A stretch of 64,000 bases of DNA from Mytilus trossulus. Lineage: Eukaryota. Below are positions 16,136 to 37,805 of the stretch, piece by piece. The position numbers were made by a program, and so were the translations under genes. The notes under the pieces are model-generated. The model did not search any database. It was given only the letters and a program-made list of their open reading frames with translations, and was not told the DNA's origin. Numbering within the stretch: the stretch's first letter is position 1; the number at the start of each line of letters is the position of its first letter. The stretch is from assembly GCF_036588685.1 (NCBI RefSeq), contig NC_086382.1, positions 46,748,001-46,812,000 of the forward strand, given 5' to 3'.

Positions 16136-16175
16136 ATGGAAAACACTTTAGGATTAGTAATTTTATTTTGGACCG
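16136..16175 (+). CDS. Paralogue A exon 1, signal peptide
   Basis: MENTLGLVILFWT G|gtaagg; 40 nt, same length and phase as 30046-30085. Confidence 0.8.
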
Positions 16176-19100
16176 GTAAGGAATTTTCTTGCTTCACTAT
16201 TTTGATTTGCATTATATTTTGTTATTTGTTGTTACAGTGCTTATCCAGTGACCTTTGGGGTATCACATTAGCAAAGACCAAAACAGTTTACCAAATTGCA
16301 GTTAGATTTCTACTCCAACTAACTGATCAACTGGTAAAATATTTTAGCAGATTGCTCATGTGAAATGTTGTTAGTATGAAGTGAGTGCTGTAAAATAAAA
16401 AGTTATACTTACCATCCAGATCCAGTCAGTTCATATCTTTGTCAATCATTTCTAACACAAATAATATCTTACTATAGTATGAGTCACTGAATAAAATGGT
16501 ATAATTTTAACTTGGAAACTTCTATCATAAATAAATATTATAAATGAAAAGTTCAAAACATTGTTTTGTAGGTGTATATTTTATAGCTTTGTCTTCTAAG
16601 ATGAAGTTATTGTGCAATTGTGATTCGAATAACATTTTGTATACAAATTACTGATCTGCTGGCAATAAAGGGAAATAATTTACATTACAAATAATCAGCA
16701 AAATTTTGTTCTGTCTGACAAATATCAAATTTCCCCATTTAATTTGTTTGTAACATTATTTCTGTTATAATTTAACTTTTATCCTCTGTTCTAAAACGAA
16801 CAATGAAACTTATTTAATGATGAAAGACGATTAACAGCTGTTTTGCAAAATGTTGAATTGTTCAAAGTATAAAGGATTGTCTACCAAGGAGCACAAGATA
16901 ACTTATAAGCAGTATTTTGCAAAACCTTTCTAATTTGTGTTCTACATGCCCTTCAACTTCATACTAATTTTGCATTTCATTTTTTTTTATGAATCTTTTG
17001 TAGGCAAAATCATAAGCCTCGTATCATTGATTAAATTTTATGTGTACATTTGAACTCAATATAAATTATTTCCCTTTAATGACAGCAGATCAGTAATTTG
17101 TATAGAAAATGTTATTCGAATCACAATTGCACAATAACTTCATCTTAGAAGACAAAGCTATAAAATATACACCTACAAAACAATGTTTTGAACCATTCAT
17201 TTATAACACTTATTTATGATAGAAGTTTCCATGTCAAAATTAGACCATTTTATTCAGTGACTCATATTATAGTAAGATATTATTTGTGTTACAGTGCTTA
17301 TCCAGTGACCTTTGGGGTATCACATTTGCAAAGACCAAAACAGTTTACCAAATTGCAGTCAGATTTCTACTCCAACTAACTGATCAACTGGTAAAATATT
17401 TTAGCAGATTGCTCAAGTGAAATGTTGTTAGTATGAAGTGAGTGCTGTAAAATAAAAAGTTATACTTACCATCCAGATCCAGTCAGTTGATACCTTTGTC
17501 AATAATTTCTAACACAAATAATATCCTACTATAGTATGAGTCACTGAATAAAATGGTATAATTTTGACATGGAAACTTCTATCATAAATAAGTATTATAA
17601 ATGAATAGTTCAAAACATTGTTTTGTAGGTGTATATTTAATAGCTTTGTCTTCTAAGATGAAGTTATTGTGCAATTGAGATTCGAATAACATTTTCTATA
17701 CAAATTACTGATCTGCTGTCATTAAAGGGAAATAATTTATATTGAGTTTAAATGTACACATAAAATTTAATCAATGATACGAGGCTTATGATTTTGCCTA
17801 CAAAAGATTCATAAAAAAAAATGAAATGCAAAATTAGTATGAAGTTGAAGGGCATGTAGAACACAAATTAGAAAGGTTTTGCAAAATACTGCTTATAAGA
17901 TATCTTGTGCTCCTTGGTAGACAATCCTTTATACTTTGAACAATTCAACATTTTGCAAAACAGCTGTTAATAGTCTTTCATCATTAAATAAGTTTCATCT
18001 TTCGTTTTAGAACAGAGGATAAAAGTTAAATAATAACAGAAATAATGTTACAAACAAATTAAATGGGGAAATTTGATATTTGTCAGACAGAACAAAATTT
18101 TGCTGATTATTTGTAATGTAAATTATTTCCCTTTATTGCCAGCAGATCAGTAATTTGTATACAAAATGTTATTCGAATCACAATTGCACAATAACTTCAT
18201 CTTAGAAGACAAAGCTATAAAATATACACCTACAAAACAATGTTTTGAACTAATCATTTATAATACTTATTTATGATAGAAGTTTCCATGTCAAAATTAT
18301 ACCATTTTATTCAGTGACTCATACTATAGTAGGATATTATTTGTGTTAGAAATTATTGACAAAGGTATCAACTGACTGGATCTGGATGGTAAGTATAACT
18401 TTTTATTTTACAGCACTCACTTCATACTAACAACATTTCACTTGAGCAATCTGCTAAAATATTTTACCAGTTGATCAGTTAGTTGGAGTAGAAATCTGAC
18501 TGCAATTTGGTAAACTGTTTTGGTCTTTGCTAATGAGATACCCCAAAGGTCACTGGATAAGCACAGTAAAATTGATTGACAAAGGTATCAACTGACTGCA
18601 TCTGGATGGTAAGTATAACTTTTTATTTTACAGCACTCACCTCATACTAACAACATTTCACTTGAGCAATCTGCCAAAATATTTTATCAGTTGATCAGTT
18701 AGTTGGAGTAGAAATCTAACTGCAATTTGGTAAACTGTTTTGGTCTTTGCAAATGTGATACCCCAAAGGTCACTGGATAAGCACTGTAACATATTTCAGG
18801 ACATTATTTACATCCCGTCTAAAAACAATGCGGTTGCTTCAATAATATCAAAGACATATGATACATTTGTATTCACGAGGGAGATGATGTGTACTGACTG
18901 ACCACTTCCGTATTAATATAAACTGTAACTTCCAATCGGTAATATCTAATCTACATGTAGGCATAAGCATGCAAGACATTGCAAGTGCCAGAACACATAA
19001 CTGTACAGACTCAGTACTATACGGGTAATGAAGCTCGCAAACCAAAGGTACACCGACTGAGTGAAATAAAGTTTGTATATACTTTATTACCGTAAGCTTT

Positions 19101-36000: not shown

Positions 36001-37805
36001 AAGCTCTCGGGAATAAATGGTATGTACAATGTTTTATATACGTGTATTATTATAAAAGTTCCAGAAATATATGTTATATAATAAAAGTTCCAGCCAAATT
36101 TGTGATATTATAAAAAGTTACAGGAATATTTGTTTTATCATAAAAGTTTCAGGAATATTTATCATGGTAATCAGATAATTGAAGTTCTAGAAATATTTAT
36201 TGTATGATCAAAGTTCTAGGAATATATACTACAATATCCAACATAGTTTTGCTTTGAACTTTATTTCTGTAACTGCCAATACTGTTTGATCGGTATTTTT
36301 GGGGTTGTCTCTTTGTAATCAGTTTTGCGCTTTGTATCGAACTAGGAAACAAGTCATTACAAGCAGATTTTGTTCGGGGTCTATGTGGCTGAATGTTCTA
36401 AGTAGTCGAAATACTGTATATCTAGCCTGTCAACACTGAGGTTGTGAGTTCGAATTCCGAACTTTACAAAACTATCTATAAACAAAAATGTATCTGACAT
36501 GAACATTAAACTGATTTTTATATATTCATCGTGAAAATTACTTACATTTTCTACTATATTTGATAACTTATGCATACCTTAAACTATAATTACTACATTT
36601 CAGTCCTGTTTTTCTAAAGAGAGACTGAATGTTGATTTTTCGATATCATATGATTTGGGCTGTATGAATGATGTAGTAAGTTAATATTTATCTTATACAA
36701 TTCACATATTCCTGCAACATACATTTCCCTGTAATTTACAGGTATCAGAAAGAAAAACATGCAAGATATATTACAATATATATACGTTTTTATATGTATA
36801 AATCAAATCGGATACAGATTCGTATAGTCATAAAAACACAAAATTATCTTGAAAGTCCTGTGAAGGATGAAAATGTTAAACAGTAATGCTAAAATTTAAA
36901 TTCTACTTACCAATTTTTATTTCGATTTTTATGCATATAGATAGATATATGTCAAATATGTTTTGCTTCTGGATCTAAATTACTGGGAAAGTATGTCTAA
37001 AACTGTAATTTACCATACTGGATGTACTACATAAAGCTTATTGTTGGCGTGTTTTATCAAATATCATTTTCATGTTTACTTGAATTTGTAAGTCAGCTGC
37101 AGTTGTTTGTCCTTGATGTATATGTCAATTTTTGTTACTGGATCCCACATATTGTCATTTTAAACAGGTATGTCTGTCTTTGGTTGCTTAACCAATTTGC
37201 CATCTTTTAACAACTGGCATACAAGGTGAAAGTTTAGCTAGCTATAAAGCCAGTTTAATCCTTAATATTCTTCAGTAAAATACCTTTACAAAGTCAGATA
37301 TATTGCAGTTGTTCTCTTTGTTCCGTCGTTTGATAAAGTCAAACGTTTCAAAGATTTTCGCCTTTTTTTTTATCAATATTTGGATTTCGATCCTATTTGT
37401 TGATATTTATTTTTTTCATCGACACCTATTTTTTGAAAACTGTATATTTACCTCGAGATGCCTATTTCAATTTTATTGATGGTGTGTGGTCTAATTGGAA
37501 AAGTCAGGAGCTCTACTTATGATAAGATAGACTTAATGTCATATTTTTCAACCTCATAAAAGCGTTTCGCGATATTGAACTAAGTTTGAGTTTTTAATAT
37601 TTGTTTTAGTGAAATGGTTTGTTACATACAAGTCTGCTTTTTTATCTTGCATCTTTGCTTCTAGATCTGTCATGCCTATTTTGGAGGAATACCCGATAGT
37701 GACATAACAAAGACACAAGTGTCCTTCGGCGGAAGCGTACAATGCTGTAAAAGTAATTTATGTAATGCTAAAGGACTGGTATTGAAAAACCCGGCAGTTG
37801 GATGA
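30046..37805 (+). CDS. Secreted ShKT-Ly6/uPAR-ShKT-Ly6/uPAR protein, paralogue B (~315 aa, 9 coding exons)
   Basis: Exons 30046-30085, 30932-31069, 31424-31503, 32724-32795, 33357-33498, 34747-34935, 35480-35553, 36604-36675 and 37665-37805. Introns are GT-AG and phase-compatible. Signal peptide MRKTLALFLIIGTVILLPEVLG. AATAAA at about 37831 and 37849. Confidence 0.9.
30932..31069 (+). CDS. Paralogue B exon 2, ShKT-like domain 1
   Basis: VILLPEVLGHCNDVDKTACGMLLAADSNMCQNPCLAQICKETCGAC; 23/36 identical to A between the first and last Cys. Confidence 0.9.
31424..33498 (+). CDS. Paralogue B exons 3-5, LU domain 1
   Basis: LDCFFCDSELHQNECYATVECKPQSE / LCIATKRLSVDQQYLFSSGCASKE / ICNTLFSGNSSTSLNHGHTLTVFNGVCCGTDRCN. 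Confidence 0.9.
31890..32130 (+). mobile_element. Decayed reverse-transcriptase remnant (Penelope-like) in an intron
   Basis: 32041-32082 translates NFTIKYIDDILSLN, containing the RT YxDD motif; the flanks are frame-disrupted. Confidence 0.6.
33530..33700 (+). repeat. Interspersed repeat (CAACAGTAGTATACCGCTGTTC family)
   Basis: Related copies at about 26090-26215, 34015-34225, 48375-48490 (-) and 60140-60290. Confidence 0.7.
34265..34621 (-). mobile_element. Hairpin-headed non-autonomous element
   Basis: Palindrome GGGTTGTAAAAGCGTTGAC...GTCAACGCTTTTACACCCC next to an ATTCTTAAAT end, with CTGATTGG near the other end. Confidence 0.6.
34747..34935 (+). CDS. Paralogue B exon 6, linker + ShKT-like domain 2
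   Basis: ...CSDFDVNSVACTILYNADPTICRKDCIGRELCPETCGTC. An alternative in-frame acceptor at 34759 is possible. Confidence 0.88.
35480..37805 (+). CDS. Paralogue B exons 7-9, LU domain 2 and stop
   Basis: VRCKTCKHIADPALCNNITLCAKSE / SCFSKERLNVDFSISYDLGCMNDV / ICHAYFGGIPDSDITKTQVSFGGSVQCCKSNLCNAKGLVLKNPAVG*. Confidence 0.9.
35990..36230. repeat. Degenerate ~30-bp minisatellite
   Basis: AAAAGTTCCAG(G)AATAT recurs at roughly 30-bp spacing. Confidence 0.6.

Follow-up and report, generated by a model that had tools for sequence, protein, structure and literature searches.

The stretch of DNA analysed here (the window) comprises 64,000 nucleotides of the mussel Mytilus trossulus (NCBI RefSeq assembly GCF_036588685.1, contig NC_086382.1, positions 46,748,001 to 46,812,000 of the forward strand). 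It contains a tandem pair of genes, A and B, whose predicted secreted products alternate two folds twice per chain, a ShKT-like module and a three-finger (LU) domain; we refer to one ShKT-like module plus the LU domain that follows it as a cassette. The pair is not unique: by sequence, it belongs to a bivalve family, some members of which join the cassette to C-type lectin or VWA domains, and in which two known folds are combined in what is apparently an undescribed arrangement. Among 1.84 billion representative proteins (clustered at 50% identity) the family search returned 99 at E<=0.001, of which 16 reached E<=1e-30; word-based protein searches gave 1, 3 and 8 relatives, and the family size rests on the larger search. 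Two features had been overlooked in the initial annotation, which was made from the letters of the window: a seventh Cys in each ShKT-like module and, in finger III of the LU domains, a motif for convertase cleavage and amidation. The reading that we favour, tentatively and at somewhat less than an even chance, is that the products are secreted two-headed binding proteins, clasped by an intrachain disulfide and, in A, matured by a convertase.

Gene models and transcripts

Gene A starts with the ATG at 16136 and the stop codon of gene B ends at 37805, both on the + strand. The initial annotation had placed two nine-exon paralogues here, and its coordinates are right. Each gene has nine exons, 16 of 16 introns are GT-AG, the intron phases are identical in the two genes (1,1,0,0,1,1,0,0), and the products, of 312 amino acids (aa) for A and 315 aa for B, are exact matches to the M. 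trossulus RefSeq proteins XP_063402024.1 (LOC134686286) and XP_063403890.1 (LOC134687485), respectively, both labelled "uncharacterized". A and B are identical in 162 of 322 alignment columns (50%), and the earlier claim that both copies keep intact frames and all their Cys is borne out, with no internal stops and 34 of 34 Cys aligned. These 34 Cys per chain correspond to 2 x (7+10), ShKT-like plus LU. Both products have a net charge of -7 and three N-glycosylation sequons. The features of the two genes, all on the + strand, are as follows.

16136..16175, +, gene A exon 1 (coding part): predicted signal peptide start; transcribed leader reaching at least to 16034 (RNA contig)
20367..20504, +, gene A exon 2: signal peptide end and ShKT-like module 1; extra Cys47 at 20465-20467
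21015..21094, +, gene A exon 3: first part of LU domain 1
22052..22123, +, gene A exon 4: finger II of LU domain 1
22561..22693, +, gene A exon 5: finger III of LU domain 1, Gly-Lys-Arg (22597-22605), CC-x4-CN end
23052..23231, +, gene A exon 6: acidic linker and ShKT-like module 2; extra Cys201 at 23189-23191
23752..23825, +, gene A exon 7: first part of LU domain 2
24847..24918, +, gene A exon 8: finger II of LU domain 2
25790..25939, +, gene A exon 9: finger III of LU domain 2, Gly-Lys-Arg-Gln (Gly-Lys-Arg 25832-25840), short non-hydrophobic tail, stop
from 25968, +, AATAAA/ATTAAA on the 3' side of gene A
30046..30085, +, gene B exon 1 (coding part): predicted signal peptide start; agrees with the RefSeq protein
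30932..31069, +, gene B exon 2: ShKT-like module 1; extra Cys47 at 31030-31032
31424..31503, +, gene B exon 3: first part of LU domain 1
32724..32795, +, gene B exon 4: finger II of LU domain 1
33357..33498, +, gene B exon 5: finger III of LU domain 1, without dibasic site
34747..34935, +, gene B exon 6: linker and ShKT-like module 2; extra Cys207 at 34893-34895
35480..35553, +, gene B exon 7: first part of LU domain 2
36604..36675, +, gene B exon 8: finger II of LU domain 2
37665..37805, +, gene B exon 9: finger III of LU domain 2, without dibasic site; short tail, stop
37831 and 37849, +, poly(A)-type signals on the 3' side of gene B

The sole hydrophobic stretch of each product is N-terminal (15-residue hydropathy peak 2.0 in A and 2.5 in B), and hydropathy gives no C-terminal glycosylphosphatidylinositol (GPI) signal or transmembrane tail (last 12 windows <=0.4 in A and <=0.6 in B), in keeping with the signal peptide and the absence of a hydrophobic tail claimed earlier. 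The identity of a GPI-anchored Ly6 protein is rejected for A and B on this lack of a hydrophobic C-terminal signal. The linker between the cassettes, described earlier as acidic in both copies, is so in A (9 Asp/Glu, no Lys/Arg) and hardly so in B (8 Asp/Glu, 5 Lys/Arg).

Spliced transcripts, whose existence had been left as a check, exist for both genes: RNA contigs join most of the predicted introns of A and B. Part of gene A is contained in 18 runs from 8 studies (4 on record as RNA and 14 guessed to be RNA), the 4 recorded RNA runs coming from a single study. Splice joints were read from the contigs of 4 of the 18 runs, and the runs were picked by their match to A. For gene A, joints were found for introns 2, 4, 6 and 8 in 4/4 runs each, for intron 1 in 3/4 (each time as 16174-20366, with one contig beginning at 16034) and for intron 5 in 2/4; for introns 3 and 7 no joint is listed, and the contig coordinates there leave exactly the exon lengths between the pieces. 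For gene B, joints were found for introns 4 and 8 in 3/4 runs, for introns 3, 6 and 7 in 2/4 and for intron 2 in 1/4 (exact); the listing has no joint for introns 1 and 5, and none of B for one of the runs (X10), which need not mean absence. Expression of A and B is not rankable from these data, which are contigs from runs selected with A and carry no readout of level or tissue. An artefact or pseudogene reading of the pair is ruled out, the genes being spliced, intact and conserved.

Contig differences are clustered in the linker exons, at 23083-23104 in A and 34778-34816 in B, and are consistent with alleles or related species and with a fast-changing linker. Within intron 1 of gene A, 16218-18791 is a 2.4-kb near-perfect palindrome with arms of 1074 nt that are 97% complementary and lie 218 nt apart; it begins 43 bases past the donor site, holds nested inverted and direct copies, and looks like a fold-back element. 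Despite the palindrome, this 4.2-kb intron is spliced correctly in 3/4 runs.

Modules, seventh cysteine and finger III motif

The LU domains are the firm part of the predicted architecture, and the earlier expectation that the 10-Cys modules would model as three-finger folds is confirmed by profile, model and structural matches. All four LU domains of A and B have 10 Cys with matching spacing and the CC-x4-CN end. Pfam PF00087 (Toxin_TOLIP) matches A with 29.3 bits and B with 24.2 bits (cut-off 21.2), the best stretch being LU domain 1, and PF00021 on A reaches 24.0 bits, just below its cut-off of 24.8. Pfam gave no separate detection of LU domain 2 in either protein, no ShK or LU match at E<=1 on 8 single exons of A and B, and the ESM Atlas had no usable match for the whole protein or for residues 21-145. 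The AlphaFold2 model has a mean predicted local distance difference test score (pLDDT) of 75, beta strands in both LU domains and a whole-model predicted TM score of 0.54. Its top Foldseek matches are uPAR, C4.4A, PSCA, GPIHBP1 and Lynx2 (uPAR E 2.9e-4; PSCA TM(target) 0.67), with just 2 of 326 matches at E<=0.001 and snake three-finger toxins at rank 42 and lower.

With the Ly6/uPAR superfamily (uPAR, C4.4A, PSCA, GPIHBP1, Lynx1/2, SLURP), A and B share the 10-Cys pattern, the CC-x4-CN end, the predicted fold and the signal peptide. Unlike these proteins, they carry a ShKT-like module before each LU domain and have no GPI signal, and finger III in the bivalve family is long, variable and mostly dibasic; we know of no dibasic finger III site in vertebrate LU proteins. 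Snake three-finger toxins are single free LU domains of about 60-75 residues made in the venom gland. A snake-type toxin identity is rejected for A and B, which are four-domain mussel proteins of 312-315 aa.

The ShKT-like module is a weaker assignment. Structure prediction supports it as a divergent variant of ShKT lying below Pfam detection: the module model (pLDDT 88.5) consists of a helix, a short helix and a helix, resembling the layout given for the hookworm peptide Nak1 in the accessible part of PMC8239465. In a second look, just three PDB chains were ranked by Foldseek, all of them hookworm ShKT peptides, with Z values of 3.6, 3.6 and 2.9; the best, Nak1, superposes with Z 3.6 and a root-mean-square deviation of 1.8 A over 35 of 39 residues. 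When the module was compared by profile with 13 ShK-type domains from the same protein set, which are in part redundant, the match probability was 92.6%, driven largely by the Cys. Pfam ShK (PF01549) found no match on A or B, whether exons or proteins were searched. For the ShK-like modules of the initial annotation, the structural evidence is favourable but weak; they go unmatched in Pfam and have seven Cys each instead of six.

What the modules share with the ShKT domain (PF01549; hookworm Nak1, Acan1 and AcK1) is, besides the helix layout, the six Cys ending in C-x3-C-x2-C (invariant in 42/42 aligned rows) and an invariant Asp two residues past Cys1. They differ from it in a longer Cys2-Cys3 spacing (10 in 77/84 modules, against 7-8 in the ShK-type domains of the same proteins), in the seventh Cys that A and B add, in lacking a Lys-aromatic dyad and, in A and B, in always being joined to LU. 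Molluscan ShKT proteins with CAP, astacin (M12) and EGF partners have been described (PMC6409789), and the pair resembles the CAP-ShK and M12 astacin-ShK proteins covered there in its secreted, repeated and sometimes non-canonical ShKT domains. The partner in the mussel pair is LU rather than CAP, astacin or EGF, and that paper never mentions 'uPAR'.

Each ShKT-like module of A and B has seven Cys, giving per chain a spare pair, Cys47 and Cys201 in A and Cys47 and Cys207 in B. By module type, the 99 proteins comprise 26 with two seven-Cys modules, 2 with one seven-Cys and one unclassified module, 1 with three modules (likely an A+B fusion), 21 with a single seven-Cys module, 20 VWA proteins and 9 others with a single six-Cys module, 2 with two six-Cys modules, 1 unclassified and 17 with no module; mixtures of six and seven Cys number 0. 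Cys47 is kept in 35/35 aligned rows and Cys201 in 36/37, and exactly 34 Cys lie past residue 20 in 8/8 bare two-cassette proteins, A and B included. Most of the single seven-Cys proteins (19/21) look like fragments, and the 13 of them that are rows of the tree group with the first or second cassettes of tandem proteins. The six-Cys group is nearly one branch, with 2 changes on a tree of 91 cassettes in which the trait column was left in, a result compatible with one origin; as judged from this tree, the seventh-Cys pattern is one event followed by long retention.

Because the seventh Cys is present in both modules of 26 two-cassette proteins and absent from 20/20 single-cassette VWA proteins, a disulfide between cassettes is predicted, and it is moderately probable that an intrachain Cys47-Cys201 bond clasps the two cassettes together. 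A predicted complex of the two halves scored 0.42, while the highest of 3 controls reached 0.05, with at least 92% contact agreement between runs and a partner pLDDT of at least 80. The mark used for complexes was reached by 51/78 solved pairs and 2/108 mismatched pairs and, on eukaryotes, by 39/65 solved pairs without a like complex and 2/126 unrelated pairs; at scores <=0.60 it was reached by just 5 of the 78 solved pairs and by all 4 of the mismatches that passed among 180.

A ShKT-like exon of the tandem type with Tyr replacing the seventh Cys lies elsewhere in the genome, at L003:8830-9018 (G000:C12, near 38846800, - strand). No LU exon was found within 9 kb downstream of it, so it is either an orphan exon or part of a gene with very long introns.

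The second overlooked feature is in finger III. The 92 LU domains compared were pattern-matched among the 99 proteins, and since the sequences are related their counts are not independent. KR or RR occurs in finger III of 72/92 of them (shuffles 19.1 +/- 3.4, maximum 29 in 1000) and G-[KR]-R in 50/92 (shuffles 3.4, maximum 10), against KR or RR in finger II of 1/92. The residue preceding the Gly is hydrophobic in most of the 50 loops (Phe 28, Ile 8, Val 6, Leu 3, together 45/50), a second Arg site lies downstream in 22/92 loops (loose pattern), and the length of finger III spans 4 to 42 residues. The motif is also present in LU proteins without a ShKT-like module (e.g. P0074, P0090, P0101), which makes it a trait of a wider bivalve LU group. 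Gene A has Gly-Lys-Arg in both fingers III, in segments of pLDDT <50 (residues 120-128 and 274-286) and preceded by Thr and Met; both dibasic sites are kept in A and its orthologues, and neither is present in B and its orthologues.

At Gly-dibasic sites in prohormones, a furin/PC-type convertase cuts, the basic residues are trimmed and the Gly is amidated. In the standard LU connectivity a cut in finger III falls between two paired Cys, so the pieces would stay joined. On its motifs, the gene A product is likely cleaved at the KR sites. A and B thus resemble prohormone-type precursors (insulin-like peptides, amidated neuropeptides) in their dibasic sites, exposed variable loop, preceding Gly and chains predicted to stay disulfide-joined; no kinship with such precursors was found in sequence or fold, and the processing is predicted.

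Proposed action and rival explanations

In the reading that we favour, the signal peptide would direct secretion and the protein would have no membrane anchor, judging from hydropathy. Six Cys of each ShKT-like module would pair in the ShK connectivity (canonically C1-C6, C2-C4 and C3-C5, as given in the accessible part of PMC6409789) and the ten of each LU domain among themselves, leaving Cys47 and Cys201 (Cys207 in B) to pair with each other and to hold the two LU domains as a fixed two-headed unit. In A, a convertase would cut behind each Lys-Arg; once the basic residues were removed and the Gly before them amidated, the product would consist of three disulfide-held chains with new ends in both fingers III, while B is predicted to remain one chain. 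In secretions, possibly those of the gut, the paired LU domains may then recognise a ligand that is a protein or lies on a surface; we infer a binding role because relatives carry the cassette on C-type lectin and VWA domains, as a reusable binding module would, and from the general behaviour of LU proteins. A more specific version is rather unlikely as a whole: a bivalve three-finger domain would be matured by finger III cleavage, often with amidation, its pieces kept on the disulfide core and two LU domains locked by the paired ShKT-like clasp, with cleavage as a switch that creates a binding or receptor-activating surface and B as the uncleavable counterpart. If the predictions hold, toxin scaffolds would have gained two new uses, the ShKT module serving as a covalent clasp and the three-finger domain undergoing hormone-like proteolytic maturation, and A and B would offer a natural comparison of a cleavable with an uncleavable form.

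A number of points weigh against the clasped two-headed reading. Protein A or B being secreted, cleaved, amidated or bonded between its spare Cys is in each case a prediction. The ShKT assignment leans on low Z values, obtained for 3 chains in the second look; on its own, the module matched no PDB entry by sequence and none in Foldseek at E<=10, and PF01549 matches just 4/42 aligned family members, weakly (best E 0.034). The split between six and seven Cys is essentially one evolutionary event, so the protein counts are not independent, and the same applies to the finger III loop counts. P0050 and P0064 may be true single-cassette proteins that keep the seventh Cys. Support from the complex prediction for contact of the two halves is weak; it returned no contacts, and an intrachain bond is indistinguishable in it from an interchain one. 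Cleavage and amidation are, from the sequences, not essential family-wide, given B and given P0011 and P0012, close relatives of A that keep KR and have lost the Gly at one or both sites. The one pointer to a tissue is the label of the single RNA study, invertebrate gut metatranscriptome.

The best surviving alternative, itself unlikely, is a hormone- or pheromone-like precursor in which the cleaved finger III shows a tethered, amidated hydrophobic end that acts on a receptor, or releases a spacer peptide that does so, with the Cys scaffold as a stable carrier. The frequency of G-[KR]-R, the Phe that precedes the Gly in 28/50 loops, the second Arg site and the variable loop length all fit it, and such loop features recall neuropeptide and insulin-type precursors; A itself, however, has Thr and Met before the Gly rather than the family-typical Phe, no site is present in B, the Gly is missing from relatives of A, and lectin and VWA partners suggest surface binding.

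Somewhat less likely still is a structural cross-linker of mucus, crystalline style, byssus or shell matrix, in which disulfides between the spare Cys of different chains would build dimers or polymers. With two such Cys, each chain could take part in a linear polymer, and the VWA domain of VWA-bearing relatives matches collagen VI and mussel proximal thread matrix protein 1. Single cassettes could dimerise through one spare Cys, yet 20/20 VWA proteins are without it; the two halves have a weak predicted contact with each other, and neither A nor B contains a long repetitive or mucin-like region.

The toxin framing of the initial annotation is weakened. A defensive toxin or ion-channel modulator, with ShKT acting on K+ channels and LU on nicotinic receptors, is improbable, even though both folds are found in toxins, snake toxins are among the weaker Foldseek rows, and secreted and Lynx-type LU proteins modulate nicotinic acetylcholine receptors. 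A Lys-aromatic dyad between module Cys3 and Cys4 occurs in 0/4 modules of A and B and in 1/84 family modules (absent from the other 83/84), which makes a toxin role unlikely. The spare Cys sits about where ShK carries Lys22 (ShK numbering), so the clasp would hide that face. Fold searches rank LU proteins that are not toxins highest, the modules have a net acidic charge and are both conserved and fused, and the ratio of nonsynonymous to synonymous change between A and B (dN/dS, see below) points to no general surplus of amino-acid replacements. The Lys22-Tyr23 dyad counts as indispensable for Kv binding by ShK, and its absence does not exclude activity, according to the accessible part of PMC6409789; module 2 of A has a Lys-Ile pair just ahead of Cys4, and aliphatic dyads exist, e.g. 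in Acan1 (PMC8239465, as far as available). The closest structure, Nak1, is without a dyad and has little effect on Kv1.3 in that same source. The pair offers no evidence of a mussel toxin.

A soluble decoy or enzyme inhibitor, its two LU domains trapping a TGF-beta/BMP-type growth factor or inhibiting an enzyme, is equally improbable: TGF-beta receptor ectodomains do trap growth factors and two-LU phospholipase inhibitors exist, and TGF-beta receptor II and BMP receptor ectodomains are in the Foldseek list and Activin_recp matches 3/94 proteins weakly, but these are fold-level matches with E above 0.006, and the ShKT partner and the cleavage motif are left unexplained.

Relatives, gene history and neighbourhood

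The family is an unstudied one, with members in mussels, oysters and scallops and in one clam or more. Organism names were found for 7 of 10 clusters looked up (Saccostrea, Ostrea, Crassostrea/Magallana, Mizuhopecten, Mytilus, Mactra), and no non-bivalve is among these names, the look-up having covered 10 of the 99 hits. The bare two-cassette form is also present in oysters and a scallop (P0023, P0025). Among 94 proteins, Pfam partners are VWA (20), C-type lectin (at least 6), Ig (4), true ShK (2), EGF (1) and fibrinogen (1); in profile searches of the PDB, the VWA and lectin regions of relatives dominated the outcome.

A 2026 survey of invertebrate LU proteins in 25 mollusc genomes lists molluscan LU fused to C1q, fibrinogen, Ig, MAM and 7TM (PMC13719153), and the bivalve family shares with these fusions the shuffling of LU onto recognition domains, LU plus fibrinogen and LU plus Ig being also among the family hits. 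In the main text of that survey, as far as it was available, there are no ShK domains, lectins, ShKT plus LU or LU plus C-type lectin architectures and no cleavage site; VWA is named in a figure legend, and a VWA-bearing relative may be drawn there; the survey's figures and supplements may also include family sequences. The ShKT plus LU unit thus goes unnamed in genome annotation and in this survey because Pfam misses one of its two domains. Terms for ShK domains and C-type lectins are enriched in the digestive gland of another mussel, where the ShK term is ascribed to putative metalloproteases (PMC5549309, available part). Literature searches, which left most subscription journals outside their coverage, found no description of a ShKT plus LU family, and no papers on ShKT plus three-finger proteins in bivalves, on ShKT plus Ly6 in Mytilus or on six oyster and scallop LOC identifiers. 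The two listed papers that mention ShKT together with uPAR both deal with C. elegans. The earlier remark that no described family with this alternation was recognised agrees with the literature found, and of the uncharacterised secreted effector family proposed with it, the uncharacterised, predicted secreted and alternating character stands.

Further modules occur in the M. trossulus genome at several places at least on C10 and at one or more on C12. More two-cassette genes lie on G000:C10 at 66.86-66.89 Mb and 69.10 Mb (L002, L004, L005), with L001 at 27.42 Mb. Those of L002 and L005 match lectin-bearing relatives, and Gly-Arg-Arg is present in the second finger III of L002, L004 and L005.

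Between genes, the first cassettes of A and B are identical in 58/121 columns and the second cassettes in 77/126, against 35/128 for the two cassettes within one gene; as the cassettes within a gene are less alike than their counterparts between genes, the internal doubling predates the duplication that gave A and B. The best-conserved parts are the ShKT-like modules (23/38 and 27/40 identical). The introns of A and B had been called unalignable, and blastn at E<=1e-3 likewise found no match between them. By a simple counting method dN is 0.41 and dS 1.06, a ratio of about 0.39 with dS near saturation, and on this ratio, which the earlier note had proposed computing, both copies are apparently under purifying selection. 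For A, recorded orthologues come from M. edulis, M. galloprovincialis and M. coruscus; for B, from M. edulis and M. galloprovincialis. Four predicted proteins of Mytilus coruscus (P0001, P0002, P0006 and P0008; 456-601 aa) seem to be A and B run together and are probably annotation fusions, which would also mean a conserved tandem order. P0001 (538 aa, three modules) is discounted as a real three-cassette protein, since it looks like such a fusion of A and B predictions.

Elsewhere in the window, a BTB-BACK-TRAF gene of the BTBD17 type lies just upstream of A, at about 10700-14200 on the + strand, with PF23651, PF07707 and PF00651 on 12994-14196. Downstream of B is a RIG-I-like helicase gene at about 39876-57560 on the - strand, with the C-terminal regulatory domain PF11648 at 39876-40511 and helicase-like exons recognised by eye further up. 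A stretch of N occupies 57779-57914. Short repetitive open frames at 6690-7268 lie on a self-complementary repeat of the REIEKS type, which is probably simple or transposon-derived.

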